From Candidatus Kerfeldbacteria bacterium (GTDB lineage Bacteria > Patescibacteriota > Patescibacteriia > SBBC01): a stretch of 64,000 nt of DNA. Positions 3,081-23,926 of this stretch are shown one piece after another. Each line of letters opens with the position of its first letter. The stretch's first letter is position 1. The position numbers and the translations under genes were made by a program. The notes under the pieces are model-generated. The model saw only the letters and a list, made by a program, of their open reading frames with translations, was not told the DNA's origin and ran no database searches. The stretch spans positions 107,320 to 171,319 of the forward strand of contig JAZDNT010000002.1 of NCBI GenBank assembly GCA_043799405.1. The letters are read 5' to 3'.

Positions 3081-3087
3081 GATGTCC

Positions 3088-9475: not shown

Positions 9476-9492
9476 CAGAAGGGGCGCTTCAC

Positions 9493-9921
9493 ATGCTCAA
9501 GCGCCGCACTTCCGTCGCCGATCACGCTGGCATGTTCGTGCGATTCGTTTCGAGTGTTCCGGACCCAGAGAACTCGAACGAGCCGGCCGGCCTGTTGTTG
9601 GTGGCCTCCTGGATTCGTGACCGACAACAGGCGTCGGCCTCGGAGCTGGCCCAGCTTCAAGCGCTTCGCCAATGGTTCAACGACAACCTGGCCCGGCCAC
9701 GCAAGTTCAATCGATCTCGTCGGCCGCATCGTCGAGAGAAAGCAATCTCCTAGTTCAAGGATTCCGCGGTGGAACACCTTCGCCGGGCTCGAGTGATCGC
9801 TGCCATTGTGGGTGCGTGCGGGTACGTGATCCGCGAGGTGCGGACTCGAAGGCCCGGCTACGTGGTCTATGAGGACGAGTGGCAGGTGGTCGCAGAGCCG
9901 TTCGCGGAGACGGTGAGATAG
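9493..9921 (+). pseudogene. small conserved-looking ORF interrupted by an in-frame TAG
   Basis: The 86-codon ORF ends at TAG 9751-9753. The same frame continues for 55 more protein-like codons (FKDSAVEHLRRARVIAAIVGACGYVIREVRTRRPGYVVYEDEWQVVAEPFAETVR) to TAG 9919-9921. A Trp codon (TGG) is plausible at the interrupted position (AIS*FK). Confidence 0.5.
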
Positions 9922-9937
9922 GTCCAGCCTCTGAGTT

Positions 9938-10000
9938 CGCGACGTAGCGAAAGACGCACGCATCGTTATGGAAAGCGATGCGTGCGTTTGGTTCTAATGA
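9938..10000. repeat. about 60 bp repeat, copy 1, with a 12 bp perfect stem-loop
   Basis: cgaaagACGCACGCATCGttatggaaagCGATGCGTGCGTttggttcta. The second copy is at 12508-12568. Confidence 0.8.
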
Positions 10001-10122
10001 GCGGCGCCAACCCACGACCCGGTCAGCGTAACGAACGTCTGGGTGCTTTCTCCTTCCGCTGAACACGGTCGCGGCCCTCCGTCGAGCGGCGCGCAGCATG
10101 CGCGCGCGACGCCCGGCGCGAG

Positions 10123-11871
10123 TCACCGCTGGCCCCATCGGGCGCGAATCCCACCCCCGTAGATGGTTGTGACGTGCAGGCCCCGCAGGGCTCCCCATAC
10201 CCGGGCCGCATTCTCGAGGTCGGGTTGGCCCGAGTTGAGGTAGTCATACGCGAGGTCCCTGTCACCGTACCGGTCCAGCAGGTCGATCATGTCCGGGATC
10301 CACGACTCGTCACCCGCCCGGATCAGGTCGAGGCTCGCGCTCCTCGCCGCCGCGCGAGCCTCGTCCGGGACGGACGGGAACAGGGTCACGGCGGCCATCG
10401 CCTCGCCGATCCGATGCAGGTCCGCGGTGGGGTCGGCCCCTCGGCTGAAGACCTGCGCCCAGGTCAGCTCGCCGCACTTGAGTCGAGCCACCATCTTCGT
10501 GGCGGGGTCATGCGCCGCCGCAGCGACCCGCCGCAGCGAGGCGCCGTCCAGGAGTTTGCCGAGAGCAATCTTCGACACGTCTCGGTCGGTCGAGGCCGCC
10601 GCCACGCTCTCGAGGTCCGCCGGTGCACGCAGACGCCCAACCGCTGCGACGCGGACGACGTCAAACGGACCTTCCAGCGCCTGCTTGACCAGTTCCGTCG
10701 CCACCGCGTGCTGTTCGACATCCGCCGCCCGAAGTCGGATCCGCGCCTGCTCGGCCCGCGCCCGAGCAGCGGCGGCCGGTTCGCGAATCCGGGCGACCGC
10801 CGCGTCCCGCGTGGACTGGTAGAAGTCGGTCGCGGCGACCTCCTGCAGCGAGGACGGCTGGCGAAGCGCGCGCACGATCGCCAGCCTGACCTTTGCCGAG
10901 GATTCACCTCGGAGGAGCTTCAGCAGACAGCCGTCGTCTCCTATGCCTGACACGGCCGCTGCACGAACGGCCGCCCGCGGAGACGTCGCCAGACGCTTCG
11001 ACCCGCCCGGGTCCTCCAGCAGGAGCGTCGCCAGCACCCGCACCTCCGGATTCCTGTCTCCCCAGGCGAGCGCAGCCAGAAACGAGGGGTCGCCCAGCTT
11101 GAGCAGCGCGCATTCGCGAACGAACGGATCGGCCGCCTCGAGTGCGATATGGCCAAGGAGCTTCCGGTCGGTCATGCGGTGGACGGCGGACCTGCTCCAC
11201 ACTTCGCCGGGCCTACGCAGGACCTTATCGGCGAGGCTTCGTTCACGATCGAGCGCCTTCCGGGAGATCCTTCCGCCGGGCATCGCCCGGTGTTTGCCCA
11301 ACCCGAGAGCCACTGCCGAGATGTCGTCGTCGAAGGGAAGTCCTATCGGGTTTCCCTGGCGAAGACCCCATAATCGGAAGCTTGCCTCGGAAGCCACGGA
11401 CCGAGGGCTGCCTGTCCGGGCGAGCTCTTCCAGCAGGCGCTCGTCGGTGATTCCGTGGATGGCGATGTTGGCCACCTGCTCGAGAAGATCCTCGTCCAAC
11501 GTCCCCGCGCGAATGACATAGGGAATGCGATCGTCCTCGTCGTCGCACTCCACGGCGACCCTCGCCAAGAGCGGCTGGTCGACCAGTGTTCTCAGCGCCC
11601 ACCCGCGGATCCTCGGGTCATCGAATTCGATCACGACTCGCGCCAGGGACGACTGGGCGGGCGGGCTTCGGAGATCCAGTCTGTCCACTGCGGCCCGCCG
11701 CACCTCGGCGTCGGAGTCCCGCACGGCGACGCTGGCCAGAATGGCCTCGTCTCTCACCGCGCGGAGGGCCGCCTTGCGCTCCTGCGGGTCTGCGCTCTCG
11801 AGCCTGGGACTGCAACCGGCCATCACCGCGGCTAGGAGGATCCCAGCGACGAGGCTGCGGCCATGTCGCAT
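10123..11871 (-). CDS. HEAT-repeat lipoprotein (cargo of the RIT element)
   Basis: Start MRHGRSLVAGILLAAVMAGC (signal peptide plus lipobox-like MAGC) with GGGAGGGAG SD. Repeated HEAT-like units (DAEVRRAAVDRL, NPEVRVLATLLL, SAKVRLAIVRAL, FDVVRVAAVGRL). Confidence 0.7.
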   Translation of the reverse strand: MRHGRSLVAGILLAAVMAGCSPRLESADPQERKAALRAVRDEAILASVAVRDSDAEVRRAAVDRLDLRSPPAQSSLARVVIEFDDPRIRGWALRTLVDQPLLARVAVECDDEDDRIPYVIRAGTLDEDLLEQVANIAIHGITDERLLEELARTGSPRSVASEASFRLWGLRQGNPIGLPFDDDISAVALGLGKHRAMPGGRISRKALDRERSLADKVLRRPGEVWSRSAVHRMTDRKLLGHIALEAADPFVRECALLKLGDPSFLAALAWGDRNPEVRVLATLLLEDPGGSKRLATSPRAAVRAAAVSGIGDDGCLLKLLRGESSAKVRLAIVRALRQPSSLQEVAATDFYQSTRDAAVARIREPAAAARARAEQARIRLRAADVEQHAVATELVKQALEGPFDVVRVAAVGRLRAPADLESVAAASTDRDVSKIALGKLLDGASLRRVAAAAHDPATKMVARLKCGELTWAQVFSRGADPTADLHRIGEAMAAVTLFPSVPDEARAAARSASLDLIRAGDESWIPDMIDLLDRYGDRDLAYDYLNSGQPDLENAARVWGALRGLHVTTIYGGGIRARWGQR

Positions 11872-12507
11872 GTTCACTGCTCCCTCCCTTGCGAGGCCAC
11901 CCATCGCGCGATCGGACTCCTGGCTTGGCCAGACGTGTCCCCTCGAGCCCCCGTGGCCATGCATCACCTCCGACGCAAGGACCGAGAACGGCGCTTTCTC
12001 CGCATGGACTTGCTCTCGGGCTCAGGTGATTGGGCTGGCGGCAAGTGGCACTGAAGGAGCGACCCCATCCTGAGCAGGCCCCGTGCTGAGGTCAAGCGGT
12101 CAGCTAAGGCGCAAGACTGGTGGGCCGGAGGTGGCGGCCAGGCCGCCAAGTGGGGCTGCCAAGCTATGTGCCGGTGCGATGCGGGTGGGGCGGGTGCACG
12201 CGCCGCGCCAGCAACCCGACCTCCCCCGTCAGAAGAGCACGCAGCTCGGGCCCCCGCCACGAGGCCGCCCGGACATGCAACGGTGGCCCAATGTCCTACT
12301 TCTGGAAAAGTGGGACATTCCCGATTCGGCTGGGCAGGCGGGGGCCGGCCGGCGGCCGATCGGGTACCCGTCGCGCAAGAAAGACGCGGACCTGCACGGC
12401 CGCCCACAATGGAGTTGAAGTAGGTGACCGACCGGAGGTACATCTCTGCGGTCACCCCAGTCGCCTCGGGCCGGGGTCTCTGAGCGCAGCGTCCCACCTC
12501 TCCGTGC

Positions 12508-12568
12508 GCGTCGACACGAAAGACGCACGCACTGTTATGCGAAGCAGTGCGTGCGTTTCGTTCTAGAG
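12508..12568. repeat. about 60 bp repeat, copy 2, with a 12 bp perfect stem-loop
   Basis: cgaaagACGCACGCACTGttatgcgaagCAGTGCGTGCGTttcgttcta. The stem differs from copy 1 by paired compensatory changes (CATCG/CGATG versus CACTG/CAGTG). Confidence 0.8.
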
Positions 12569-12616
12569 AGCAAAGCGCGGTGGCCACTGACCGCGCATAA
12601 CCCATAGCCCAGCATA

Positions 12617-12889
12617 AGACCTCAGCCCGATGGCGAGGGCATAATCGGCGGCCGGCTTGCCGTTAACGCAGGTGAGGACCCCGAACATCTGGGCTCCATC
12701 TCGCGCGAGCGCGAAGGCCTCGGACTGGATCGTGAGGCCGAATCTCGGCACGTGGAGCTCTACCTCCTCGACGAAGCGGCCATACGGCACCGGGTGGTAG
12801 CTCTCCGTGGGTTCGGGCACGGGGATGGCGGCGAGATCGGCCTTGGTGGCCTCCCAGCCGCCGCGATGGACAACGAGCGTTCCGGACAT
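12617..12889 (-). pseudogene. DUF932-family protein, N-terminal fragment
   Basis: MSGTLVVHRGGWEATKADL...ADYALAIGLRS, then element-derived codons run on to a stop at 12563. The sequence continues logically into the fragment at 5674..6135 (GLRS | SYDRSLS...GSRTFVCDNL). Confidence 0.75.
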
Positions 12890-12919
12890 CGGTGGACTTC
12901 CTTCTTCGGGGGCGAGAAC

Positions 12920-13387
12920 TCAGAGCTGTTGCCGAGCGCGCAAGGACACGACCCCACGGCCGGCGACGATGACGTGGTCGAGGACGGAGATGCCGAGAAG
13001 CTCCCCGGCTCCGACCAAGCGTTTGGTGATCGAGAGGTCCTCATCGGAGGGCTCGGGGTCGCCCGACGGATGGTTGTGGACCAAGACCAGGGCCGCCGCA
13101 GCTTGCGTCACGGCCGGACGGAACACTTCGCGCGGATGAACGATCGAGGCGTTCAAGGACCCGATCGAGACCGTCTCCTGGCCCATGACCTCGTGCCGGG
13201 CATTGAGGAGCAGGACGAGGAAATGCTCCCGGCTCTCCTTCCGGAGCTTCGGCCCAACGAGCCGCACGACATCGTCGGGTCCGCGGATCTCGGGGAGCCT
13301 CCGGCCTCGGTAGCGGCGCCGTGTGAGTTCGCAGACGTACACGGGGAACTCCTGCAGGGGCGGGAATGAAGAGGGGCTCCGGATCAC
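12920..13387 (-). CDS. radC: RadC-like JAB/MPN domain protein
   Basis: Motif LVHNHPSGDPEPSDEDLSITKRL...LDHVIV is typical of the RadC/DUF2466 family. Confidence 0.85.
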   Translation of the reverse strand: MIRSPSSFPPLQEFPVYVCELTRRRYRGRRLPEIRGPDDVVRLVGPKLRKESREHFLVLLLNARHEVMGQETVSIGSLNASIVHPREVFRPAVTQAAAALVLVHNHPSGDPEPSDEDLSITKRLVGAGELLGISVLDHVIVAGRGVVSLRARQQL

Positions 13388-13589
13388 GTCGATCAGGAGC
13401 CCCGCGGGATGGAAGGAGCGAAGGAGCAGGAACAGGTAGGGGCGGCGGCCGTCAGGGGTGCGACTTCAGCGGGCCGCCTGCGTGGCCCCCGATAGCACGT
13501 CAGGCGTCCACGCTTGGGCGCCCTCCGTCGGGCCGCCGACACCCTCCCTGTCTACTCTGTTGGCATGTCTCCGGGAGGAGACGGGCTGC

Positions 13590-14360
13590 TTACTCCCCGC
13601 GCCAACGCTGGCAGTGGGCGAAGTACTCGCACTCGCTGCAACGCCACGATGGGTTGGGGTAGAAGTGCTCGGTCTGAATGGCCAGGGCGACTTGCTGGAT
13701 GAGCCGGGCGGTCCAGCCGAGGTCCTCGACCGTGCGGGTGGTCTCGTGCCGCTCCAGTCGAGGCTTGGTCGTCTTGAGCAGCATGTCGAGCCGGAGCTTC
13801 GGGATCGTCCCGTGGAGAAGGAAGAAGGCGAGGGCGTACGTGGACAGCTGCAGGTGCCGCTCGAGGCCCCCTTGCTCAAGGGTCCTTGCCGCCGTCTTCA
13901 GATCGACCAACGTCTCCCCCTCCTCCACGAGATCGACGACACCGCGGAGCCGCACGTCGAGCAGTTCGCCGGTCTCAGGATCGGCGAGGTCCAGCTCGAA
14001 GGGCTGCTCGACGGCGACGGGCTTCACTCCGTTCACGGACTCCATGTAGAGCTGGAGCATGGCGCGGCCCTTCTCGGCGAGAGAGTCCTTCGACTCGGCG
14101 CCAGTGAAGACCAACGGCTCCAGGTTCTGCGCGTACCAGTCCGCGTCGAAGATCTTGAGGACCTCGGTCAGGTCCGTCGTCCTGCCGGCGAGCCGTTCCT
14201 TGTGGAACCACTCGACTGCTGCATGGACAGACGAGCCGAAGGCGAGCGCGGAGGCCCGCCACGGCCGTGGAATCTGGTCCACGTACTGGAAGCGGTACTT
14301 GAGGGGGCAGCCGAGGTAAGCGTTGACCTGGCTGAGGCTAGAAGTCCGGGGTTGCTCCAC
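13590..14360 (-). CDS. PD-(D/E)XK nuclease, Cas4/RecB-like, with Cys cluster
   Basis: VVDLVEEGETLVDLKT (D...DxK), QLSTYALA (QxxxY). An N-terminal Cys (GCPLKY) plus C-terminal CSECEYFAHC fit a 4-Cys Fe-S site of Cas4/AddB-type nucleases. Confidence 0.75.
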   Translation of the reverse strand: MEQPRTSSLSQVNAYLGCPLKYRFQYVDQIPRPWRASALAFGSSVHAAVEWFHKERLAGRTTDLTEVLKIFDADWYAQNLEPLVFTGAESKDSLAEKGRAMLQLYMESVNGVKPVAVEQPFELDLADPETGELLDVRLRGVVDLVEEGETLVDLKTAARTLEQGGLERHLQLSTYALAFFLLHGTIPKLRLDMLLKTTKPRLERHETTRTVEDLGWTARLIQQVALAIQTEHFYPNPSWRCSECEYFAHCQRWRGE

Positions 14361-15030
14361 GGCCCGCTCCCTGGGGGGCAGGGTTCAGAAGCCGGTCAAT
14401 CATCGCCGTGGCCGCGGGCTTGGTGACCTCGGACAGCGAGCCCACTTGGAACAGGTCCTTGAGCCTCTCCTCGGCCGCTTCGCGCTGGTAGCCCTGGCCC
14501 GCCATGAGGCGGAAGAGGTACCGGCGCTGGGCCTCGGACATTGGCTCTGACCCGTTGCCGGATCGAGGCGCTGACTTCGGGGCTCCGTTCCCGTTCCCAC
14601 GCGGGCGCGCGGGAGTCGGGGTCTTGACGTGGCGTGGGGAGCGCGACGCAGGGGGTGCACCCGACCCGGGGCTTGAGTCCCGGTCCAGGCTGACGCCGTC
14701 CAACTCCTCGAAGGAGACGACGCCGACGTTGACGGCGTCACGGAGGGCGCGGGCCTTGGCCCGGGTCTCGGCCACGCGGATCAGGTGCGGGGCGAGGAAG
14801 TCCTCGACGCTGCCGGGATCGGCATCGCCGAGGCCCTCGAAATGGCCCCGCTCGACCTCGACGACCGCCTTGACGATCGCGAGGTGGCCGTTCTGATCGC
14901 TCGGGGTAGTGAGCAGCTCGGTCTGGATGGACTTAAGGCCCTCCTCGTGGGCCTTGGAGAGGAGTTCGGCATAGACGACGGCTTCCCGGGGCTCGGCAGG
15001 CGAGCCGGGGGCGATATTCTGGGCCTTCAT
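14338..15030 (-). CDS. hypothetical protein, possible DNA-binding/annealing partner of the adjacent nuclease
   Basis: 230 aa. Its stop overlaps the nuclease start by 23 nt. Conserved-looking core (RVAETRAKARALRDA), Pro/Ser/Gly-rich linker, helical C-terminus. Function not recognised. Confidence 0.45.
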   Translation of the reverse strand: MKAQNIAPGSPAEPREAVVYAELLSKAHEEGLKSIQTELLTTPSDQNGHLAIVKAVVEVERGHFEGLGDADPGSVEDFLAPHLIRVAETRAKARALRDAVNVGVVSFEELDGVSLDRDSSPGSGAPPASRSPRHVKTPTPARPRGNGNGAPKSAPRSGNGSEPMSEAQRRYLFRLMAGQGYQREAAEERLKDLFQVGSLSEVTKPAATAMIDRLLNPAPQGAGRGATPDF

Positions 15031-15182: not shown

Positions 15183-16583
15183 ATGAGAGACATGCTCTTT
15201 GTCAGCCATGCGAATCCTGAAGACAACGAGGCCGCGCGCTGGTTGGCCCTCCAACTCGCTCGCGAAGGCTATCCGGTCTGGTGCGACCTGACCAAACTTC
15301 TCGGGGGTGAAGACTTCTGGCGCGACGCTGAACAAGCTATCAGGGAGAGGACAGCTAAGTTCCTCTACGTTCTGACTCGCGTGTCGAACGACAAGCAGGG
15401 CGCGCTCGACGAGTTGCAGGTTGCCAAGAACGTCGCCCGCGAACACAAGTTCCACGACTTCATCATCCCGCTGCGGTACGACGATCTTCCGCCGCGTCAG
15501 GCCAACATTCGCTTGGCAAACCTCAATTCCGTCCCGTTTCACGGTGGCTGGGCTGCCGGTCTTGCTCAGCTCCTCCAGAAGCTCGCGGAAGAGGGCGTAG
15601 CGAAGGATCCCCGTTTCTCACCGACGTCAGTCGCGAAGTGGTGGCGTAGGTTCTATCGTAGGGAGCAACTACTTCGGCGGGAGCCCGAGAGACTCGTCTC
15701 GAACTGGTTTCCGGTTCTCGACCCACCGCCGTTGCAACTCCACGAGCTCCGCTCGCGCGATGCTGTCTCGGAACTGGAGCTTTCCAGAACGCTGCCATAC
15801 CCAGCCATCCAGCATGAGGAGTGCCTCGTCTCATTTGCCGACGCGCATGACTTCGCCGAGGCACTCCCAGCTGGCCTTTCGGTGGTGCGCTCGCGGCGCC
15901 TCATGCTAACCCGTGATGCTGAAGACGAGCGGCGCGAGTGGTGGACCTTCGACCAGGAGCACAACGCCCTGATCGCGCTCCTTCGCCAAGCCTGGGTGAA
16001 GCACCTGCGGGATCGGGCCATGCCGACCTACGTCTTTGCGAGCGGTGGCGAGTCGATGTACTTCACCTCGGGCCTAGCCTCGGAGGACCGGGTGTACCTT
16101 CCGTCGAAGAACGGCGGCCGTCAGCCCTACCGGCAGGTGCTCGGCTTTGCCACAACGCGAAAGGCCACGGCCGAGGCGCCAGCGAGGCTGCGGTACTGGC
16201 ACTTTGGCGTGGAAGCGCGGCCGACGCTTGATCCGCAGCTTGCCTACGCGATGCGGCCGCATGTCCTCTTCTCTGACGACGGGCAGACGATCTGGGACAA
16301 CAAAGACCTCCTGCACCGAGCGCGCCGCAACCAGTGTAAGCAGTGGTGGAACGACGTCTGGCGAGACCGCCTTCTCGGAACGGTCCTTTGGCTCGCGGAT
16401 GGCAAGGAGCATCTCGCCCTGTCTGCGGGGTCCAGTCAGACCTTGCTTCTTGCCACGCGGCCGCTCGAGTACACCTCGCCGCTGACCTACGACGATTCGG
16501 GCTTCGAGGGCCCACCGCTTGATGAGGGAGACGATGAGGACATCGAAGAAGAAGCCTCCGCGCCGGCGAGCGGGTCAGTCTAA
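15183..16583 (+). CDS. TIR-APAZ protein (SPARTA effector subunit)
   Basis: N-terminal TIR-like domain (LFVSHANPEDNEAARWLALQLAREGYPVWCD, ...GALDELQVA...). Long APAZ-type region (SNWFPV, YWHFGVEA, KQWWNDVWRDRLL). Acidic C-terminal tail (DEGDDEDIEEE). Sits directly upstream of a short pAgo. Confidence 0.85.
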   Translation: MRDMLFVSHANPEDNEAARWLALQLAREGYPVWCDLTKLLGGEDFWRDAEQAIRERTAKFLYVLTRVSNDKQGALDELQVAKNVAREHKFHDFIIPLRYDDLPPRQANIRLANLNSVPFHGGWAAGLAQLLQKLAEEGVAKDPRFSPTSVAKWWRRFYRREQLLRREPERLVSNWFPVLDPPPLQLHELRSRDAVSELELSRTLPYPAIQHEECLVSFADAHDFAEALPAGLSVVRSRRLMLTRDAEDERREWWTFDQEHNALIALLRQAWVKHLRDRAMPTYVFASGGESMYFTSGLASEDRVYLPSKNGGRQPYRQVLGFATTRKATAEAPARLRYWHFGVEARPTLDPQLAYAMRPHVLFSDDGQTIWDNKDLLHRARRNQCKQWWNDVWRDRLLGTVLWLADGKEHLALSAGSSQTLLLATRPLEYTSPLTYDDSGFEGPPLDEGDDEDIEEEASAPASGSV

Positions 16584-16638
16584 GCCAACGCTCAGGCCTC
16601 CTCACCGCCGGAGTCGACTCCAACGCGGATCGATCCTC

Positions 16639-18138
16639 GTGCTGCGGGAGCCAAGGGTCCTCTTTCACCACAGCCAAGCACTTGAGGACCCACGTGATGG
16701 CCTGACGCTCTTTGGCCCGCTCGAAGGCCCGTTCGGGCTCCGGATTGGGGTCATCGGCACGCTGTACGGCATTCGCCTATACCGCGCGTGGGCCGAGCGC
16801 ATCCGCGGGCCGCTCGCGAACGAGGTGGGGTCGTACCTCTCTGATCCACACTTTCCCGGGTTCGAGTCGGCGTTCCGCATCCCGTGGCAGCTTGAGCCTG
16901 CGCTCACGATCGAGGTTGACCCCGAAGAGCTCGATCGAGTTGTACACCACGGCGACCCTCACCAGCGCGTCTTTGCTACGGTCGCCCTATTTGCCGAGCC
17001 GATCGTCGCGGCGCTGCGGAATGAAGAGGTCAAGGTCGACGTCTGGTTCGTGGTCATCCCGGATGTCGTGCACGAGAACTGCCGCCCGCGGTCTCGCTTG
17101 CCGCTCGATGAACGCACCGAAGATGATGCACCGGCGCACATCCGCGCCAAGGAGGCGCGGGAGCTTTTCGATCAGCCCTCGCTTTTCGCGGAAGATCACG
17201 AGGCGGCCACTCCGTACTACTTCGAGGTTGACTTCCACAACCAGCTCAAGGCCCGGCTCCTCGGGAATCTGGCGCCCACCCAGATTGTTCGCGAAAGTAC
17301 GCTCGCCTTCCCACCGAAGGAGGTGCGCCTACCGCCGGGTCGCGACAAACGCAAGCTCCAAGCAGCGGTGGCCTGGAGTCTTTCAACCGCCGCCTTCTAC
17401 AAGGCCGGCGGGAAGCCCTGGAAGATCGCCGAGATCCGCAAGGGCGTGTGCTACGTCGGGCTCGTCTTCAAGCAGGACGTAACGCAGCGCGATCCTCGCA
17501 TGGCATGCTGTGCCGCGCAGATGTTTCTGGACTCCGGAGATGGGACGGTCTTCCGCGGAGCGGTTGGGCCATGGCATTCATCTGAGCGCCACGAGTTTCA
17601 CCTTAGCCACGCAGCGGCTCGCGAGCTCATCGCCGTGGCGGTGGCCTCGTACGTAGACAAGGCCGGGCATCCACCACGGGAGCTCTTCATCCACGGCAAA
17701 GCGTATTTCGAAGATGAAGAATGGGCAGGTTTCCAGGCAGGCGTCGACGCGCGAATGACCACGCTCGTCGGCGTGCGTATCCGAGACACAGCAGATCTGC
17801 GGTTGTACCGGCCTGGCACTCACCCGGTCTTGCGCGGCACAGCTCTCGTGCGTGGCCGCAACTCTGCGTACCTGTGGACTCGCGGATTCGCCCCGCTCCT
17901 GCGTACGTACGTCGGACGCGAGGTCCCGAAGCCGCTCCGGATCGATGTGCTCCGTGGCACGGCCGAACTGCGCAAGGTCCTTGCCGACATCTTGGCTCTG
18001 ACCAAGCTCAACTTCAACACCTGCATCTTTGCCGATGGCCTGCCAGTTACTTTGCGATTTGCGGATGCTGTCGGCGAGATCCTGACAGCTGGTCCCGTCG
18101 GGCAGAGCAACCCACTCGCGTTCAAGTACTACATCTGA
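16639..18138 (+). CDS. short prokaryotic Argonaute (MID-PIWI only; SPARTA sensor subunit)
   Basis: PIWI hallmarks AAFYKAGGKPWKI, CCAAQMFLDSGDGTVFRG, LTKLNFNTCIFADGLPVTLRFAD, C-terminal ...LAFKYYI. About 500 aa, so it lacks N/PAZ domains. Start is uncertain: GTG 16639 (chosen by expected length), or ATG 16522/16534, which overlap the upstream gene. Confidence 0.85.
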   Translation: MLREPRVLFHHSQALEDPRDGLTLFGPLEGPFGLRIGVIGTLYGIRLYRAWAERIRGPLANEVGSYLSDPHFPGFESAFRIPWQLEPALTIEVDPEELDRVVHHGDPHQRVFATVALFAEPIVAALRNEEVKVDVWFVVIPDVVHENCRPRSRLPLDERTEDDAPAHIRAKEARELFDQPSLFAEDHEAATPYYFEVDFHNQLKARLLGNLAPTQIVRESTLAFPPKEVRLPPGRDKRKLQAAVAWSLSTAAFYKAGGKPWKIAEIRKGVCYVGLVFKQDVTQRDPRMACCAAQMFLDSGDGTVFRGAVGPWHSSERHEFHLSHAAARELIAVAVASYVDKAGHPPRELFIHGKAYFEDEEWAGFQAGVDARMTTLVGVRIRDTADLRLYRPGTHPVLRGTALVRGRNSAYLWTRGFAPLLRTYVGREVPKPLRIDVLRGTAELRKVLADILALTKLNFNTCIFADGLPVTLRFADAVGEILTAGPVGQSNPLAFKYYI

Positions 18139-18218
18139 TGTTAGGCGCAGATTGGTAAACGCACGCAGCCTGCTGCATCGCTGTGGGACACGTACTCACG
18201 CACGAACGGGGCAGGGCC

Positions 18219-18974
18219 ATGCTTCCAAAGAGACCCACTGACATTCGCTCGGCAGTCGACCAGCTCTTCGACAAGGAACCACTCCCCCCTGACCTTGCCC
18301 GGCATCTTCTGAGTGCGTGGAGCTCCAATCTCAACGCCACGGAGCGCAGCGTGAGTCGTGGATTTCTTGCGATCGTCGCTACCTTTGCGGGGTTCATAAC
18401 CCTCGACACGAAGATCCTGACAAAGATCGCGTTTCAAGGTGCCGAAATTGGACGCACTGGAATCATCCTATGCTTTGCCACTGGCGCAATGTCCTATTTT
18501 TATTACAGATGCATTACACAGCTAGGATTTGCCCATGACCTGCGCACGGCGATTGCAGTGCTCTATCGGAGGCTCCATGAGCCTGTTTATATCGGCGGCC
18601 TTGATCTCCTGACCCACGTACCGAGCATAAGGAATCTAGAGGCATACGATTCATTCTATGCGCCCAAAAGCCTCCGCGTCTTTCACGAGCGAACAACGGA
18701 TGTGGTCACACTTGCCCTACTGCTTGGCCCTCTGGTCGTGGTCGTATACTGCACGATTCGGCTGTGGAGTTATCCCGATGTTAGACCTGTCCTCTGGACT
18801 GTCACTGTCTTGGCGGCGCTCGTGTTTGTCTTGCGCGCGTGGCTCTATGGTCTCAGGCAGAAGGGTGATGATGTCTTCGCCGATCGCCGCTTGGAGTCGC
18901 TGTCCGACTCCCCCAAGGGAGCGGGCGCCAACGCTGCGGAACACGATGACGAGGCAGTCGCGCCAAAGTCCTGA
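18219..18974 (+). CDS. hypothetical 4-TM membrane protein downstream of the SPARTA pair
   Basis: Same strand, about 80 nt after the pAgo stop. Hydrophobic helices (FLAIVATFAGFITL, GIILCFATGAMSYFYY, VVTLALLLGPLVVVVYCTI, VLWTVTVLAALVFVL). Locally more AT-rich than its neighbours. No family recognised. Confidence 0.55.
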   Translation: MLPKRPTDIRSAVDQLFDKEPLPPDLARHLLSAWSSNLNATERSVSRGFLAIVATFAGFITLDTKILTKIAFQGAEIGRTGIILCFATGAMSYFYYRCITQLGFAHDLRTAIAVLYRRLHEPVYIGGLDLLTHVPSIRNLEAYDSFYAPKSLRVFHERTTDVVTLALLLGPLVVVVYCTIRLWSYPDVRPVLWTVTVLAALVFVLRAWLYGLRQKGDDVFADRRLESLSDSPKGAGANAAEHDDEAVAPKS

Positions 18975-18994: not shown

Positions 18995-19230
18995 CCAGCT
19001 GCGATAGCTAGTGCGAGAGCATCAAACATGTGCAGCCAGTACTTGTCCCGCGGTCGCAGCCCCAGCGCCGCCCGTTTCGGGATCAACTCCTTCAGCTCAT
19101 CGAGACGCCTGCCTGACCAATGCCTCCGCGACATGGATCTTCGTCGCCTTCGGGTTCCCGACCACGGGGGGATCGCACTCTCCGGAGCGCGTCAAGGGGT
19201 TCTTTGCTTTGGTCTTGTCCGACGTCAGCT
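18995..19230 (-). pseudogene. 5'-truncated, frameshifted remnant of a RuvC-like gene
   Basis: Two minus-strand frames give ...GNPKATKIHVAEALVRQ... and ...IPKRAALGLRPRDKYWLHMFDALALAIAA, matching the C-terminal ~80 aa of CDS 20548..21066. A 26 nt core is identical (19025-19050 = 20594-20619). Confidence 0.7.
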
Positions 19231-19979
19231 TATACCGGCCATAGCCGATCAGCTCGTGCGCCGGGTTGCCACGGGTTGACGGCCCAGACTTCTCTGAAGT
19301 GCACCGTCTCGCGACGCAGCGCCGCGCGCATTTCTCCCAGCTCGGTGTCTCCGTACGGAGTAAGGTCGAAGAAGATCGCCAGGACGACCTCTGACGGCAC
19401 TGGTCCGAGGTGCAACTGCTTCTTGCGGAGAGCCTCGAGTCCGCGCGCGGCCACGACGTCGTGGTCGAAGTGAAATGGTGGTCCCTGAATCGAGATGTTT
19501 GACCGATCAGCGTCGATGCCTTCGAGTTCCATCTCGGCGATGCCCATGTCGTCCGCATGCGGCGCGAGAATCCTCTTCTCGCCGGGGGAGAGCGGCGAAA
19601 CCACACTCCTCAAGATCGTCTCGCGGAGTACCGCGCCCATTGCCTTGCGATCACGTCGGCTATCTGGGAGCCGGTGAACCCAGATCGTCAACTTGAAGCC
19701 CTTCAGAGCCCCGGACATGAGCGGTTCCTGAATTTCCGCGTAAGCCCACTGCCCCGCTATCGCCCGCTTCGCCCGCTCCTCCTTCTCATTGCTCGCAGCG
19801 CAGGTGTGCTGCACGAGGAGCGGCGGGGCGCCTCGGGCGGAGCTGGGCCAACGGTAGTCCCAGTCGGTGTGCGGAGCCTCGATGGGCTGGCCGGCGAACG
19901 CGGTGTGGTGAATGCGGTTGTACGCCGAGAGAAAGAGATCAAGGAATTTCTGTCGTGCCAAACCTTTCAGTTCAGCCAT
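19230..19979 (-). CDS. hypothetical protein (249 aa)
   Basis: Start MAELKG with GGAGGGAGAGG SD. Balanced, globular-looking composition. No family recognised. Confidence 0.55.
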   Translation of the reverse strand: MAELKGLARQKFLDLFLSAYNRIHHTAFAGQPIEAPHTDWDYRWPSSARGAPPLLVQHTCAASNEKEERAKRAIAGQWAYAEIQEPLMSGALKGFKLTIWVHRLPDSRRDRKAMGAVLRETILRSVVSPLSPGEKRILAPHADDMGIAEMELEGIDADRSNISIQGPPFHFDHDVVAARGLEALRKKQLHLGPVPSEVVLAIFFDLTPYGDTELGEMRAALRRETVHFREVWAVNPWQPGARADRLWPV

Positions 19980-20202
19980 TCGCCTCTCCCTCCATCCGCT
20001 ACAGACTAACAAGTCTCTAGCGCCACGGCCATCCCCAAGGCTCATGCCTGCGTCGCCATTTATCGCATTCGTCGTCCTAATCCTTTTGATTGTGGTCGGC
20101 TTGTGTTTGGACCGCTGGAAGCGCCTAGGCTCACGGCGCCCCATTGCCCTTCACTCAGGACCGTGCTTGAATAGAATGGTCCTATTACTAACGCATCACC
20201 TT

Positions 20203-20547: not shown

Positions 20548-21066
20548 TCAAGTCGCATTGACGCTTGCGGCGACCGCGATCGCCAGAGCGTCGAACATGT
20601 GCAGCCAGTACTTGTCCCGTGGTCGTAGCCCGAGCGCCGCACGCTTCGGTCGATTCGGGATGAGTGGCGTGAGTTGGTCAAACCCCTGCGCTACGAGCAC
20701 CTCGGCCACCTCGATCTTCGTCGTCCTTGGGTTCCCCGTGACGCGCTCGCGAATCGTCGCCGGCGACAGCTCGACGACCACAACCCCCAACTCTTCTGTC
20801 CTGCTCCGCAGTTCCTGCTCGATCACCGACATGAGCGCGGCCCGTTTGGTCGGGAGCATGAGGGGTTCCTCGATCGCCACGATGTCGGGCCCGTGCTTCT
20901 CGATTTCCGCGAGGACGATTCGCTTCGCCTGCCCGATCACGTCGTAGGGTCGGGTACCATTCCGAAGCGTCCGCACGCCGTAGGCGAGCAGCTCACGTCC
21001 GCGGAGGACAGCGAGACCCATCTCCTTCGTTCCGGGATCGATGCCGAGGATGGTCTTGTGTTGCAT
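20548..21066 (-). CDS. RuvC-like Holliday-junction resolvase fold nuclease, copy A
   Basis: ILGIDPGTKEMGLAVL (Asp 1), IVAIEEP (Glu), HMFDALAIAVAA (Asp), in the order expected for RuvC-family catalytic acidic residues. 172 aa. Confidence 0.7.
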   Translation of the reverse strand: MQHKTILGIDPGTKEMGLAVLRGRELLAYGVRTLRNGTRPYDVIGQAKRIVLAEIEKHGPDIVAIEEPLMLPTKRAALMSVIEQELRSRTEELGVVVVELSPATIRERVTGNPRTTKIEVAEVLVAQGFDQLTPLIPNRPKRAALGLRPRDKYWLHMFDALAIAVAASVNAT

Positions 21067-21186
21067 GGGTTGAGTCGTGAGTTGGTTTCAAATGCCCTCC
21101 CGAAGGTCTGCTCGTCGGAGGTCCCTTGCGGACCACCTCCGAGGCAGCGGCGCTCGACAAGGCGGAGGCGCCGAGAGACGGCCGGA

Positions 21187-21702
21187 TCACCGGCCGCGGG
21201 AGGGCGGTTGCGTCGCTGTCTGGTGGTGCATGGCGAGCGCGACGGCGTCGAACATGTTCTGCCAGAAGCGCTCCTTCCACTTCCGGTCCTGCGTGAGGTA
21301 GACGCGGAGCTGCGGGAAACGCACTGCGACAGCCACGGCTGCTTCAGCCTTCGTGGCTCGTCCGTTGCCGAGCACGCCCTGGCGGACCTGCTGCGGCGAG
21401 TAGGTCGCAAACGGGATGCCCTGCAACCGGGCGAGTCGACGCACCGTGAGGGTCAGGCGGTGGACATCGTCGAGCCAGGGCAGGGGGTGGTGGTACGTCT
21501 TCTCCATCACGATCGCGTGCGGGTGGTGCAGACGGAGCCAGCCCTTCACGTGCCGGCGGACTTCTTTGAGGCGCGCGCTGCGAGGCAAACGTCGAAGCGT
21601 CAGGGCTCCGGCGGCAGCGAGCCGGCGGCCGGAGAGCACGGCCATGCCGAGGTCGCGGAGACCGGGATCGATGGCGAGGATGGGTTCAGTTCGATGGTTC
21701 AT
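21187..21702 (-). CDS. RuvC-like nuclease, copy B (paralog of copy A)
   Basis: ILAIDPGLRDLGMAVL, AIVMEKT, NMFDAVALAMHH. 171 aa. Its start overlaps the upstream wHTH gene by 17 nt. Confidence 0.7.
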   Translation of the reverse strand: MNHRTEPILAIDPGLRDLGMAVLSGRRLAAAGALTLRRLPRSARLKEVRRHVKGWLRLHHPHAIVMEKTYHHPLPWLDDVHRLTLTVRRLARLQGIPFATYSPQQVRQGVLGNGRATKAEAAVAVAVRFPQLRVYLTQDRKWKERFWQNMFDAVALAMHHQTATQPPSRGR

Positions 21703-22222
21703 GGGCGTGTTGCTTTAGGAGATAAAGGAAGAGCGCGGTTCGGGACCGTCGGATTCGTGTCTCGGGCACGGCCAGCGTGCCGGCAAGGGCGCGTTTCACG
21801 ACCGAGTCAGGGTAGAGGCTGAGCGCCGCCTGGAATGCTTCCTCGTTCCCGGGCTCGCCGAGTGCCCGCTGGAGCTTCGCGACCGTGAAGAACCGCGTGG
21901 GCACTGGCGGTGGTTCGGCCTGCGCCTTCGGGGAATCAACGCGCTTCATCGTTACCCGGACCTTGCCGTTGAGCCGCACGGCGTCGAGGTAGCCAGCCTT
22001 CCGCAGGTGTCCGAGCCAAGAGCGGATCGTCCCTTCAGGCAGCCCCATGTCCCGCCCGATCGCCGCGGGCTCCGCCTCGAATGTCTCAGCGCCGGCCGGC
22101 AGCCGGGCCAGGAGGTCGAGGTAGAGCCAGAGTCCCGCGCGCATGCGTCGCAGGTGGTAGGCCCGCGGATGCTCGAGGATGCGGCGATCGAGGGCGAGCG
22201 TGATGGGTCGAGGGAAAGACAT
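21686..22222 (-). CDS. winged-helix DNA-binding protein, copy 1
   Basis: N-terminal LWLYLDLLARL...IGRDMGLPEGTIRSWLGHLRKAGYL (wHTH-like). The C-terminal ...RRSRTALFLYLLKQ motif is shared with the neighbouring gene. Confidence 0.55.
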   Translation of the reverse strand: MSFPRPITLALDRRILEHPRAYHLRRMRAGLWLYLDLLARLPAGAETFEAEPAAIGRDMGLPEGTIRSWLGHLRKAGYLDAVRLNGKVRVTMKRVDSPKAQAEPPPVPTRFFTVAKLQRALGEPGNEEAFQAALSLYPDSVVKRALAGTLAVPETRIRRSRTALFLYLLKQHAHEPSN

Positions 22223-22238
22223 GGAGTCTGGAGGATTA

Positions 22239-22838
22239 CTAGCTGAGCTTTCGAAGCAGGGAGCGGAAGAGCGCGGCGCGTGAGACGCGGATCGAGGTCG
22301 TCGCCTGGACGCGCTTCAAGGCGCGATGGACGAGCGAGGGATTGCGTCCGGAGAGGAGCGTTCGGAACTCGTCGCGGTCGGCGTCAGGCCCGAGGACTGC
22401 AAGCACTTCGTCGAGCAGCGCCTCTCCTTCCCCCTGCCCCCCATCCTCTTGCTGCTTAGCTGCTGCAGCAGCGCTGCTGACGGGTACTTCTCTATGCACC
22501 TCGCTGCTGGAGGCCGCGGAATCAGGGGAGGAAGGGTGCTCGACATGGTTGCTGTCAGACCATGCTTTGAGCTTGATGACAAGGTACGGCGTCGGCGTGT
22601 GGACCTCGATGAGGTCTGCGTTGCTCAGCCGCTCCAGCCACCCCGCGAGCTGTTCTTCTTCGAGGCCAAGATCCAGCGCGAGCCGATCCGCTGGCCGGCA
22701 GACGACACCGCGGTAGTTCGCACGTGCGGCGAGCATGACGTAAAGCCAGAGCGCATCGCCGACCAGAGCACGACCACCGGGGAGCTGGAGCGGCGCCTCG
22801 ATGATCCGCCGTGCGTGTTGTGGCAGGCATCCGCTCAT
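22239..22838 (-). CDS. winged-helix DNA-binding protein, copy 2 (paralog)
   Basis: LWLYVMLAARANY...LALDLGLEEEQLAGWLERLSNADLI and C-terminal ...RVSRAALFRSLLRKL. Same architecture as 21686..22222, with a low-complexity linker. Confidence 0.55.
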   Translation of the reverse strand: MSGCLPQHARRIIEAPLQLPGGRALVGDALWLYVMLAARANYRGVVCRPADRLALDLGLEEEQLAGWLERLSNADLIEVHTPTPYLVIKLKAWSDSNHVEHPSSPDSAASSSEVHREVPVSSAAAAAKQQEDGGQGEGEALLDEVLAVLGPDADRDEFRTLLSGRNPSLVHRALKRVQATTSIRVSRAALFRSLLRKLS

Positions 22839-23119
22839 GCGCTTGCGGCGTTGGCGGAGCCTCCGTCCTTCGGAAAGGTGGAGTAGAAGTCCATGTACAG
22901 CGACTCCGCGAGCGTGCCGAGGATCTTGGCCATCTTGAGCAGCCGGGGGACGCTGGGCAGCGTAAGTCCTCGTTCCCAGGAGGAGATCGCGTTGCGCTTG
23001 CGGCCGAGCATCTCGGCCAGCCTCCGCTGGGAAAGGCCAGCTTTGATCCGGTACTCCCGGATCTTGTTCGGGAATCTGGGCGCGTGGCGGGACGCGCGCG
23101 GGGTGTGCTGGACAGGCAT
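22835..23119 (-). CDS. XRE-family HTH transcriptional regulator (cI/Cro-like)
   Basis: IREYRIKAGLSQRRLAEMLGRKRNAISSWERGLTLPS. Its stop overlaps the next start (ATGA). Start uncertain (ATG 23119; the ORF extends to 23194). Confidence 0.75.
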   Translation of the reverse strand: MPVQHTPRASRHAPRFPNKIREYRIKAGLSQRRLAEMLGRKRNAISSWERGLTLPSVPRLLKMAKILGTLAESLYMDFYSTFPKDGGSANAASA

Positions 23120-23191
23120 GCCGTCAGGATAGCGACCCGAAGGAAAACCGAACAGGGGGGTAAAAGCGTGGAAATGCGGACATCCTGTGGA

Positions 23192-23219
23192 CAACCCGAT
23201 ATTGACAACTTACCCATAG
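23192..23219 (+). promoter_or_regulatory. near-consensus sigma70-type promoter in the divergent regulator region
   Basis: TTGACA (23192-23197), 16 nt spacer, TATACT (23214-23219), about 40 nt upstream of ATG 23259. The segment is AT-rich within the GC-rich island. Confidence 0.5.
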
Positions 23220-23258
23220 GTAATATACTGAAAGCAGAGATCACTAATCACTACACCT

Positions 23259-23477
23259 ATGGCAACACCACTCCCCATCGTCACCTACGAAGGCAAGCGC
23301 TGGTTCTTCGACGCCCGGCTGCAACAACTCCGCACCGTAGACCGCGACCGCCCACTCGAGTTCCGCGACCTCAACGATTTCGAGATGGAATACTTCAAGG
23401 GCCTCGTCGAAAAGGGCGAGGTTGACTACCTGGCCGTTGACACCCGGCGGCCCGTGAATACAGCGACTAAGTCTTGA
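23259..23477 (+). CDS. hypothetical small protein (72 aa)
   Basis: First gene transcribed divergently from the XRE regulator. No family recognised. Confidence 0.45.
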   Translation: MATPLPIVTYEGKRWFFDARLQQLRTVDRDRPLEFRDLNDFEMEYFKGLVEKGEVDYLAVDTRRPVNTATKS

Positions 23478-23877: not shown

Positions 23878-23926
23878 CGCCTCCGCCCCCCTACGCTCCC
23901 TTGACTTGGTCGGGCATGATGAAGAC

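Follow-up and report, generated by a model that had tools for sequence, protein, structure and literature searches.

A probable SPARTA operon carried as swappable cargo of a large serine recombinase element on a Kerfeldbacteria-labelled contig

Introduction

A GC-rich island on a contig labelled as Candidatus Kerfeldbacteria (CPR/Patescibacteria) carries two adjacent genes that resemble a TIR-APAZ/short-Argonaute (SPARTA) system. The locus raises the question of whether the pair is such a system and, if so, how it came to stand beside the genes of a CPR bacterium. The RefSeq SPARTA systems described in PMC9097488 (legend of Fig. S1) come from Acidobacteria, Bacteroidetes and Proteobacteria, and the literature searched contained no report of an Argonaute from the candidate phyla radiation. 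The 64-kb stretch of DNA surrounding the pair (the window, to which all coordinates refer) was analysed at the level of genes, residues and gene neighbourhood.

Results

Identity of the gene pair

The two genes are adjacent on the + strand with TIR-APAZ upstream (15183-16583, followed by Ago at 16534/16639-18138), as the original prediction had placed them, and both open reading frames are full length, without frameshifts or stops. The first gene (15183..16583) encodes 466 amino acids comprising a TIR NADase domain (aa 1-~140), an APAZ domain and an acidic C-terminal tail, and its ATG corresponds to residue 1 in the solved TIR-APAZ proteins of SPARTA. The motifs that had been quoted from this protein (LFVSHANPED, GALDELQVA, SNWFPV, YWHFG, KQWWNDVWRDRLL and the acidic tail) were all found in its translation, as were those quoted from the Argonaute (AAFYKAGGKPWKI, CCAAQMFLDSGDGTVF and the C-terminal AFKYYI).

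The original prediction had proposed profile searches and alignment to characterised pairs, and both agreed with the assignment, at a level of similarity far beyond chance. Pfam TIR_2 spans aa 6-131 of TIR-APAZ (E=2.9e-18), and the PADLOC model Aga_TIR-PNTD1-PNTD2 covers aa 1-457 of its 466 residues (E=4.3e-122); the PDB TIR-APAZ chains aligned over aa 1-436 (8ifk_A, 1e-65; 8fex_A, 4e-59). The Argonaute matched PADLOC pAgo_I (E=3.4e-189; model positions 4-493 of 493) and BabAgo (8qlo_B, 3.6e-151, covering residues 4-507 of 507). Pfam Piwi gave no match for Ago at E<=0.1 and NCBIfam no meaningful match for either protein, so it is the PADLOC and PDB matches that settle their identity. Residues 39-539 of the Ago reading frame align to residues 4-507 of the 507-aa BabAgo, MapAgo and CrtAgo; the protein spans the solved short Argonautes end to end and therefore lacks the N and PAZ domains of a long Argonaute. 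TIR-APAZ precedes Ago in each of the 14 loci that yielded a complete or nearly complete TIR-APAZ homolog.

SPARSA (SIR2-APAZ) and SPARDA (DUF4365/nuclease-APAZ) systems share with this pair a catalytically dead short MID-PIWI Argonaute, an APAZ-effector partner and the logic of abortive infection. The effector in the window, however, is the TIR domain detected by TIR_2. The PADLOC model for SIR2-APAZ matched only the Ago-like part, and weakly (8.5e-23), and PDB Argonautes of the SPARSA/SPARDA type matched the window Ago far more weakly (1e-37 to 1e-45) than did BabAgo.

Functional residues

The residues on which SPARTA activity depends were located by alignment. Glu77 sits in GALDELQVA, which aligns with GVLKELAVA of the Map and Crt proteins with no gap before Glu77, and both Phe45 and Glu77 of the TIR domain are identical in the window and in 13/13 relatives compared (14 sequences). 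The substitution E77A abolishes SPARTA activity (PMC10899771, PMC10355822). In MapAgo, the pocket for the guide 5'-phosphate is formed by H207, K211, Q222 and K263, and R225 and T228 are RNA-guide residues (PMC10355822); all six are identical in the window Ago, where they lie in the segments FHNQLK, PTQIVREST and AAFYKAGG. The TIR-APAZ tail extends ~30 aa past the last aligned residue, and 12 of its last 30 residues are D or E (40%); an autoinhibitory role for this tail has been described (PMC10899771).

The PIWI tetrad, which had been expected to be absent, is incomplete. The first and third acidic residues have given way to Val (in VGLVFK) and Gly (in FIHGKA), and at the fourth position Asp is retained (RFAD); the BabAgo equivalents are GLVYK, IHAK and RFAD. 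Positions 3 and 4 were provisionally placed by MAFFT alignment to Thermus thermophilus Ago (TtAgo), and position 1, which MAFFT mis-aligned, by motif inspection and identity with BabAgo; the glutamate-finger position could not be placed. BLASTP against the TtAgo PIWI domain aligned only the C-terminal segment. Every applicable sequence-level test (architecture, gene order, Glu77, MID pocket, tail and tetrad) was passed, and the pair is very probably a canonical SPARTA system, with a short pAgo of clade S2A and a TIR-APAZ partner.

The adenine-stacking Tyr105 of the Maribacter protein (MapTIR-APAZ) is replaced by Pro. This bears on whether the operon might be a recently transferred passenger, silent or non-functional in a CPR host through foreign GC and codon usage, the want of a recognisable promoter and a possible lack of guide biogenesis. 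The non-aromatic residue would fit such an account, as would an island GC ~10 points above that of the host flank. The upstream region of 15183 yielded no sigma-70-like promoter in a scan that was not designed for CPR or foreign promoters, and scanning the operon's surroundings for promoters and terminators was uninformative overall. Against a silent passenger, the reading frames are full length with all tested catalytic and binding residues intact; position 105 varies among natural relatives, and the same Pro is present in the intact relatives L001 and L032. SPARTA also works without dedicated guide-processing genes (PMC9097488). A silent operon is accordingly considered unlikely, and a functional SPARTA system is the preferred reading.

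The start of the Argonaute

The Ago frame is open over 16519..18138, with candidate starts at ATG 16522, ATG 16534 and GTG 16639, and the start codon is ambiguous between the latter two. GTG 16639 yields a 499-aa protein and lies 55 nt past the TAA of TIR-APAZ (16581-16583), and the two ATG codons overlap TIR-APAZ by 50-62 nt, in keeping with the earlier remark that Ago is either 55 nt downstream or overlapping. ATG 16534, the NCBI call, overlaps by 50 nt, yields 534 aa and adds a basic extension of ~35 aa. Measured to the conserved start of Ago, 55 nt follow the TIR-APAZ stop; the corresponding distance in 11 further loci is -8 to 35 nt.

In this subclade the Argonaute may begin with a basic N-terminal stretch of ~30 aa whose codons overlap those of the acidic TIR-APAZ tail, a feature that the solved SPARTA proteins do not have. 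A fuller version of this idea holds that Ago is translated from an upstream ATG, that its first 25-35 Arg/Lys/Pro-rich residues are read in the +1 frame over the acidic-tail codons, that the two oppositely charged tails co-evolve, and that the extension is regulatory, clamping the acidic tail or binding nucleic acid, all within a CPR bacterium that a mobile element has entered. This combination is put forward tentatively, as a rather doubtful proposal.

A swappable cargo slot

The operon had been described as the cargo of an integrative element, and comparison with related loci both upheld and sharpened this description: the element is of the large-serine-recombinase type, and SPARTA occupies a defined variable slot. 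The backbone runs in the order large serine recombinase, HTH, two RuvC-like genes, cargo, PD-(D/E)XK, RadC and DUF932, and is common to the window and to L001, L052, L079 and L071-L078. The slot holds SPARTA in the window, L001, L052 and L079, and elsewhere a patatin with a 631-aa gene (L074-76), rSAM/NACHT genes (L071-73) or genes of 401, 249 and 483 aa (L077). Nucleotide homology stops at 14,979 and restarts at 20,567.

The left arm of the slot (12563..15030, - strand) comprises a 108-aa gene, RadC (12920-13387), the PD-(D/E)XK nuclease (13590-14360) and a 230-aa protein (14338-15030), and is ~80% identical at the nucleotide level to the ENA loci L071-L076. The right arm (20548..24148, - strand) contains the RuvC-like resolvases (20548-21066 and 21187-21702), 178-aa and 199-aa genes with weak DnaD/replication-initiator matches, and an HTH_31-type regulator (22835-23194), together with an 80-aa gene on the + strand (23906-24148). 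Beyond it lies the large serine recombinase (24194..25798, + strand), recognised by Pfam PF00239 (Resolvase), PF07508 (Recombinase) and PF13408 (Zn_ribbon_recom).

Two further genes share the slot. The first (18183..18974, + strand) encodes a predicted membrane protein of 263 aa for which neither a family match nor a homolog in a related locus was found; it is for that reason not a conserved SPARTA partner. The second (19230..20144, - strand) is an orphan of 304 aa, annotated as 249 aa (V1907_01275), with only five homologs in 5.8 billion proteins, one of which lies in the same slot of L077. Between them, a fragment duplicated from the 3' end of the first RuvC-like gene (18998..19159, - strand; 83% and 73% identical to 20567-20736) marks the boundary of two stacked cargo cassettes. 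An accessory role in SPARTA was considered for the 263-aa and 304-aa genes and rejected: both are absent from all other SPARTA loci, and RuvC directly follows Ago in L052 and L079. The earlier statement that the operon is followed by unrecognisable genes is thus correct for the two genes immediately after Ago, but not beyond them, where the resolvases, regulator and recombinase are recognisable.

The rest of the GC-rich element seen in the window (1..12562) contains a 261-aa gene of unknown function, the Type I R-M genes HsdM (981-3080) and HsdR (3088-5568) and a fragment of DUF932. Nested within it is a 6.4-kb insertion, in which three tyrosine recombinases stand in tandem (6193-9475) along with a HEAT-repeat protein (10123-11967). 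Nothing spoke for a phage origin: no relative of Ago or of the PD-(D/E)XK nuclease was present in IMG/VR viral contigs, and no structural genes occur in the 25 kb of element seen. Conjugation genes are also absent from those 25 kb, and PHROG matches were confined to RuvC-like, HTH and weak DnaD/replication-initiator families. In its conserved backbone around a swapped, defence-type slot, the element resembles the defence islands and cargo hotspots of prophages, satellites and ICEs, and LSR integrative elements; it differs in showing neither phage structural nor conjugation genes in the 25 kb seen, which include one end.

The company that SPARTA keeps suggests that it might mainly serve the element, through inter-element competition or stabilisation and the removal of incoming plasmids and elements, with host defence a side effect. 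The swappable-slot element carries other defence-type cargo (Type I R-M here; patatin, NACHT and SIR2-HerA among relatives); SPARTA has been characterised against highly transcribed multicopy plasmids (PMC9097488, PMC10899771); and the viral contig collection held no relative. Such a reading concerns who benefits and leaves the molecular mechanism the same, no sequence feature separates it from host defence, and CPR plasmids and competing elements are essentially uncharacterised. It is a credible possibility, although we judge it somewhat short of an even one.

The junction with the host

The element ends at a tRNA locus (25667..25858, - strand) made up of the host tRNA-Ala(CGC) (25667-25742) and tRNA-Arg(CCT) (25787-25858), with a second copy of the tRNA-Arg 3' end at 25754-25768. 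Relative to L001 and L074, the recombinase is homologous up to ~aa 490 (nt ~25,664), that is, to the 3' end of tRNA-Ala, and over its last ~44 codons the frame passes through that tRNA on the antisense strand. The right element/host junction is accordingly placed there, at about 25,664-25,670; to the left, the element runs on past the edge of the window. As in known LSR and hotspot elements, the recombinase stands at the extreme end. Integration is probably beside a tRNA gene, and relatives appear to preserve an empty site: on the related Kerfeldbacteria contigs L028 and L029, tRNA-Arg(CCT), tRNA-Ala(CGC), tRNA-Ala(GGC) and the host genes follow one another with no island.

The displaced 3' half of tRNA-Ala was sought elsewhere in the 64-kb window and not found. 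The 3' half of the window's tRNA-Ala recurs in L029 as an exact copy of 34 nt. Interpretation of this orphan half as a simple att scar was rejected, the arrangement being more complex and split tRNA-like. Either reading puts the sequence in a Kerfeldbacteria genome.

The GC content is ~58-71% over 1-26 kb and 51-58% over most of 27-64 kb (two 1-kb intervals reach 62-64%), and the intergenic kilobase at 26-27 kb has 34% GC. The GC-rich island is thus real. The flank had been called low-GC and CPR-like; the second term is borne out by IF-2 and by synteny, both of which point to Kerfeldbacteria, but the first is not, since the flank is at 51-58% and the AT-rich part amounts to only ~0.5 kb of intergenic DNA. 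IF-2 matches MFH0828812.1, from the same contig, at 100% identity, its next named matches being Kerfeldbacteria (~72%) and then Patescibacteria (~52-56%), and the flank gene order is shared with L028, L029 and L030. The DNA beyond the element is genuine Kerfeldbacteria (CPR) housekeeping DNA. IF-2, RNase Y, Mur ligase, HsdM, RadC, PD-(D/E)XK and Ago all belong to one 302,101-bp NCBI contig, with accessions in window order.

Whether the two sides belong together had to be considered. Among the classic shared repeats in metagenome assemblies are tRNAs. The SPARTA operon could be real and its CPR placement an artefact, in which the element of a GC-rich bacterium, inserted at its own tRNA-Ala, was joined to the Kerfeldbacteria contig by the assembler through the tRNA sequence common to both, or the contig was mis-binned. 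The switch in GC coincides exactly with the two tRNA genes, repeats of just this kind. There is room for a chimera because only the right junction is seen, the left end being outside the window, and room for it at the tRNA because the remaining members of the family are all found in GC-rich surroundings (61-64% GC), with none adjoining a tRNA. The leftmost island reading frame has its best relatives, at <=46% identity, in Acidobacteriota and Gammaproteobacteria MAGs (GTDB-representative contigs searched).

Several observations nonetheless oppose an artefact. Both halves of tRNA-Ala(CGC) occur at the same locus in the Kerfeldbacteria MAG L029, and the half next to the recombinase is matched there exactly over 34 nt. 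The C-termini of the family's recombinases diverge at the junction, and the tRNA-encoded tail (WWTVADSNRRPL) resembles native tails (WQxxxxDxRTW), which fits an attP x attB crossover and not a random join. Further att-type scars are present at the tRNA locus, and the tRNA, at 76 nt, falls below the final k-mer size of common assemblers. Locus tag 01265 and gene density are consistent with this contig extending a further ~230 kb leftward from the window; if so, a chimera would make a Kerfeldbacteria-labelled MAG mostly foreign. A chimeric assembly is unlikely, and an artefact of either kind is given little credence; integration into a Kerfeldbacteria chromosome is the reading adopted here.

Discussion

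As a system the SPARTA pair is ordinary, and its kind is already well characterised structurally and mechanistically. It has the two-gene order and domain architecture of MapSPARTA (Maribacter polysiphoniae), CrtSPARTA (Crenotalea thermophila) and BabSPARTA (Bacillales bacterium), and shares their Phe45, Glu77, MID 5'-phosphate pocket, RNA-guide residues, acidic tail and incomplete PIWI tetrad. Only its placement is notable: a swappable cargo slot of an integrative element on a CPR-labelled contig.

The mechanism is inferred by homology to these three systems (identity ~55-57% for Ago and ~40% for TIR-APAZ). TIR-APAZ and Ago would form a 1:1 heterodimer, with the Ago MID pocket holding the 5'-phosphate of small guide RNAs drawn from the transcriptome. 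Pairing of the guide with complementary ssDNA of a highly transcribed invader, either plasmid or phage, would displace the acidic tail, leading to Ago-Ago dimerisation and then to TIR-mediated tetramerisation. The tetramer would build composite NADase sites around Glu77, and depletion of NAD(P)+ would end in cell death or growth arrest. The operon itself would be cargo between the RuvC-like pair and the 230-aa/PD-(D/E)XK/RadC module of the GC-rich element, which the large serine recombinase presumably mobilised and which appears to be located at the 3' end of tRNA-Ala(CGC) in the Candidatus Kerfeldbacteria chromosome.

A well-delimited slot with contents as varied as SPARTA, patatin, NACHT and wholly unknown genes is a practical hunting place for new defence genes, among the candidates for which are the 263-aa and 249-aa orphans. 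The possible basic extension of Ago could be tested cheaply as a variation on SPARTA autoinhibition and, if true, would be a regulatory variant with no counterpart in the solved complexes. Should the integration be real, an element with relatives in GC-rich bacteria has brought an NAD-depleting abortive-infection system into a CPR bacterium of reduced genome, which would bear on how, and from whom, episymbiotic, defence-poor lineages gain immunity.

The SPARTA gene pair

The TIR-APAZ open reading frame occupies positions 15183-16583 of the forward strand (466 aa), and that of the short Argonaute (Ago) is open from 16519 to 18138 on the same strand. The positions agree with the original prediction, and the translations contain every motif quoted there. 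Codon-position GC in both frames follows the pattern of real genes, with GC3 (0.74-0.75) exceeding GC1 and GC1 exceeding GC2. Along its entire length the TIR-APAZ protein matched the PADLOC TIR-APAZ model (E = 4.3e-122); its residues 6-131 matched Pfam TIR_2 (2.9e-18), and residues 1-436 the solved SPARTA chains 8ifk_A (1e-65) and 8fex_A (4e-59). Ago matched PADLOC pAgo_I (3.4e-189). Ago aligned to the 507-aa SPARTA Argonautes of Bacillales bacterium (Bab), Maribacter polysiphoniae (Map) and Crenotalea thermophila (Crt) from their residue 4 to the last (8qlo_B, 3.6e-151). This end-to-end alignment leaves no space for N or PAZ domains; the protein is therefore a short Ago, as had been proposed, and not one with intact N/PAZ domains.

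The functional residues were examined by alignment. Phe45 and the predicted catalytic glutamate of the TIR domain, Glu77, are kept in the window protein and in 13 of 13 aligned relatives; E77A is routinely used as the inactive mutant (PMC10899771, PMC10355822). In Ago, the residues aligned to the MapAgo MID 5'-phosphate pocket (H207, K211, Q222 and K263) and RNA-guide contacts (R225 and T228), as listed in PMC10355822, are identical. The PIWI DEDX tetrad is incomplete, as anticipated: the strands of its first and third acidic residues read VGLVFK and FIHGKA (GLVYK and IHAK in BabAgo), and the fourth Asp is retained (RFAD), with positions 3 and 4 backed by comparison with T. thermophilus Ago and position 1 by motif inspection. 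The adenine-stacking Tyr105 of MapTIR-APAZ is, in contrast, Pro in the window protein. As natural relatives have P, H, Y, F or S here, the Pro is no sign of decay.

The TIR-APAZ protein ends in a tail of ~30 residues, with Asp or Glu at 12 of the last 30. In apo-SPARTA an autoinhibitory tail occupies the nucleic-acid cleft (PMC10899771), and the acidic tail of the window protein fits that description. Each of the sequence-level features that define SPARTA was found, and the pair is, as judged from sequence, a canonical clade S2A SPARTA system. By homology, TIR-APAZ and Ago would form a heterodimer in which Ago would load a guide RNA with a 5'-phosphate. Binding of complementary single-stranded target DNA would displace the acidic tail, the complexes would assemble into tetramers, and the TIR domains would deplete NAD(P)+, so that cell death or growth arrest would abort the infection or plasmid.

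The Ago start codon

The Ago gene had been placed either 55 nt downstream of the TIR-APAZ gene or overlapping it, depending on the start chosen, and both descriptions were accurate. The TIR-APAZ gene ends in a TAA (16581-16583). Ago could start 55 nt later, at GTG 16639, or at the in-frame ATGs 16522 and 16534, which give overlaps of 62 and 50 nt, respectively. The NCBI start is ATG 16534, which yields a protein of 534 aa (P0001, MFH0828791.1, locus tag V1907_01265) with 35 extra N-terminal residues, MRTSKKKPPRRRAGQSKPTLRPPHRRSRLQRGSIL, the first part of which is read in the +1 frame across the codons of the acidic tail. From GTG 16639, Ago would begin MLREP, as does the homolog P0004. In the window and in L001, the closest long relative, 55-58 nt separate the TIR-APAZ stop from the conserved Ago start, compared with -8 to 35 nt at 11 further SPARTA loci.

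The locus L079, whose Ago is 81% identical to that of the window, bears on the choice between these starts. There, the stretch that runs from the TIR-APAZ stop to the conserved ILVLPEP strand contains no ATG, GTG or TTG, and upstream overlapping ATGs are the only starts that retain this strand. The long form of Ago therefore seems to be required in L079. An extension of 20-32 aa with a net charge of +5 to +15 is annotated in ~20 of 112 close Ago homologs, although part of its basic composition arises automatically when codons rich in GAA/GAG are read in the +1 frame, and non-coding DNA of high GC likewise gives Arg-rich translations. A long form of Ago with a basic N-terminal extension is plausible in the window. 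The possible extension (~25-35 aa, net charge up to +15) would lie at 16519-16640 in the window, 9989-10110 in L001 and 1567-1715 in L079.

SPARTA as exchangeable cargo

The GC-rich part of the window (1-25.7 kb) carries Type I R-M genes for HsdM (981-3080) and HsdR (3088-5568), a DUF932 fragment (5674-6105), three tandem tyrosine recombinases (6193-9475), a HEAT-repeat protein (10123-11967), RadC (12920-13387), a PD-(D/E)XK nuclease (13590-14360), a 230-aa protein (14338-15030) and the SPARTA pair (15183-18138). These are followed by an orphan membrane protein of 263 aa (18183-18974), an orphan frame of 304 aa (249 aa in the annotation; 19230-20144), two RuvC-like genes (20548-21066 and 21187-21702), two small genes with weak replication-type matches (21686-22838), an HTH regulator (22835-23194) and a large serine recombinase (LSR; 24194-25798).

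The same backbone genes in the same order were found in L001, whose Ago is 73% identical to that of the window. The PD-(D/E)XK protein belongs to a cluster of 34 proteins at 90% identity, and the backbone recurs, at ~77-80% nucleotide identity, in contigs of two cluster members (L071-L076) and in the L077 contig, which carries a homolog of the 249-aa orphan. Between RuvC-like gene 1 and the 230-aa gene is a slot that contains SPARTA in the window, L001, L052 and L079; patatin and a 631-aa protein in L074-76; radical-SAM, methyltransferase, SDR, NACHT and two unknown genes in L071-73; and unknown genes of 401, 249 and 483 aa in L077. Nucleotide homology between the window and the backbone ends at 14,979 and restarts at 20,567. 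In L052 and L079, RuvC directly follows Ago. These observations indicate that SPARTA is exchangeable cargo of a specific LSR-element family, in agreement with its predicted status as cargo of an integrative element, and that the 263-aa and 249/304-aa genes after Ago are not its partners. Distant SPARTA loci (Ago identity of 56% or less) lack this backbone.

The slot also contains, just past the SPARTA cassette, a duplicate of the 3' end of RuvC-like gene 1 (18,998-19,159 versus 20,567-20,736; 83% and 73% identity), which suggests that two cassettes are stacked: SPARTA with the 263-aa gene, then the 249-aa gene. The arrangement further suggests that cassettes are swapped or stacked through recombination at the RuvC 3' end sequence. 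An equivalent fragment lies at 11619-11861 of L001. The predicted 263-aa membrane protein had no homolog in any related locus compared, and a search of 5.8 billion proteins gave only five homologs of the 249/304-aa orphan; that in L077 occupies the same slot of another element beside the 401-aa unknown gene. Both orphans are candidate novel defence genes.

Positions 1-3316 of L001 carry a SIR2_2 and DUF87/HerA gene pair and an Mrr_cat nuclease where the window has Type I R-M; the second arm is thus also variable and collects defence genes. A 6.4-kb segment of the window (6105-12563) is missing from L001 and L071, where DUF932 directly adjoins a 108-aa gene. It carries the tyrosine recombinase genes (6193-7563, 7281-8471 and 8306-9475), which partly overlap and resemble a 'recombinase in trio', together with a 178-aa gene, the 614-aa HEAT-repeat protein and a 213-aa frame, and looks like a mobile element nested inside the island. 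A direct repeat of 81 nt (78% identity; 9922-10002 and 12491-12571) flanks the part containing the HEAT-repeat gene. It holds a strong hairpin, GACGCACGCA...TGCGTGCGT, and could be a terminator or cassette boundary.

The probable junction with the Kerfeldbacteria chromosome

The housekeeping genes of the right flank encode IF-2, RNase Y, YmdB, an NrnA-like DHH protein and a Mur ligase. The IF-2 sequence matches, without differences, a protein from the 302,101-bp contig that also encodes Ago and is labelled Candidatus Kerfeldbacteria; after it, named matches come from Kerfeldbacteria (~72% identity) and then Patescibacteria. The gene order of the flank is common to the window and three related contigs. 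The predicted CPR-like neighbour was thereby identified as Kerfeldbacteria, but the flank was not low in GC as described: it measured 51-58%, and AT-rich sequence is limited to ~0.5 kb between genes. Further right are genes for two very large proteins, secreted or at the surface (1061 and 1396 aa; 26513-33896), whose position is the same in related Kerfeldbacteria contigs. They contain FN3/purple-acid-phosphatase-N repeats, a GH43/GH32 domain and, at the C-terminus, LysM domains, and may serve the CPR bacterium at its cell surface or in attachment to a host.

The window LSR shows clear homology to its counterparts in L001 and L074 up to ~residue 490 (nt ~25,664). The 3' CCA end of a tRNA-Ala(CGC) (25667-25742, minus strand) starts where this homology stops, and the final ~44 LSR codons are antisense to the tRNA and spacer. 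Native LSR C-termini of the family share the motif W-Q-x4-D-x-R-T-W, to which the tRNA-encoded tail, WWTVADSNRRPL, is similar. Crossover at an attP within the LSR 3' end, resembling the tRNA target, would produce this pattern. The empty site is represented by two related contigs (L028 and L029), in which tRNA-Arg(CCT), tRNA-Ala(CGC), tRNA-Ala(GGC) and host genes follow one another in that order and the island is missing. At this locus L029 has both halves of the window's tRNA-Ala(CGC), the LSR-abutting half as an exact 34-nt match. A second copy of the tRNA-Arg(CCT) 3' end, GATTCCTGGTGGGGG (25754-25768, minus strand), lies 20 nt downstream of the intact tRNA-Arg and looks like an att-type scar of an earlier integration at the tRNA cluster.

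These features were weighed against a chimeric assembly join at the tRNA, instead of real integration. The other element-family members all lie in 61-64% GC DNA, none has a tRNA neighbour, and the single junction observed is the right one, the island's left end being outside the window. A chimera is nevertheless considered unlikely, because the tRNA at the junction is of the Kerfeldbacteria type, the junction bears the crossover signature, further scars occur at the same locus, the 76-nt repeat is short relative to assembler k-mers, and the Ago locus tag (~gene 253 of the assembly), accession order and ~1 gene/kb are consistent with the window being preceded on its contig by ~230 kb. Accessions ascend in window order on one contig (HsdM MFH0828779, Ago …791, Mur ligase …837). 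Real integration is thus the preferred reading.

Other features of the tRNA locus were recorded. L029 (3630-3860, minus strand) contains a tRNA-Ala-like gene in pieces, GGGCCGTTAG / CTCAATTGGTAGAGCGCCGCATTCG / CAGAGGTCGGCGGTTCGAATCCGCCACGGTCCACCA. Two inserts, flanked by the inverted repeats TCCCGA..TCGGGA and TCCCGCACCAAT..ATTGGTGCGGGA, separate the pieces, and an intact tRNA-Ala(CGC) lies within the second. The arrangement may represent a nested or split tRNA, or scars left by mobile elements. Three Kerfeldbacteria contigs share a perfect palindrome, TGTTCCACGTGGAACA (25987-26002 in the window), upstream of their tRNA-Arg/tRNA-Ala cluster. It lies immediately 5' of tRNA-Arg in L028 and L029; the window has an additional GC-rich stretch of ~60 nt between it and the tRNA. 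The palindrome could be an operator or promoter element.

SPARTA systems in RefSeq have been reported from Acidobacteria, Bacteroidetes and Proteobacteria (PMC9097488). Among the papers searched, none mentions Argonaute together with the candidate phyla radiation, which tentatively suggests that a CPR host for Argonaute was previously unreported. The SPARTA system itself is of a known kind; the interest of this locus lies in its vehicle and its host, and perhaps in the Ago extension.
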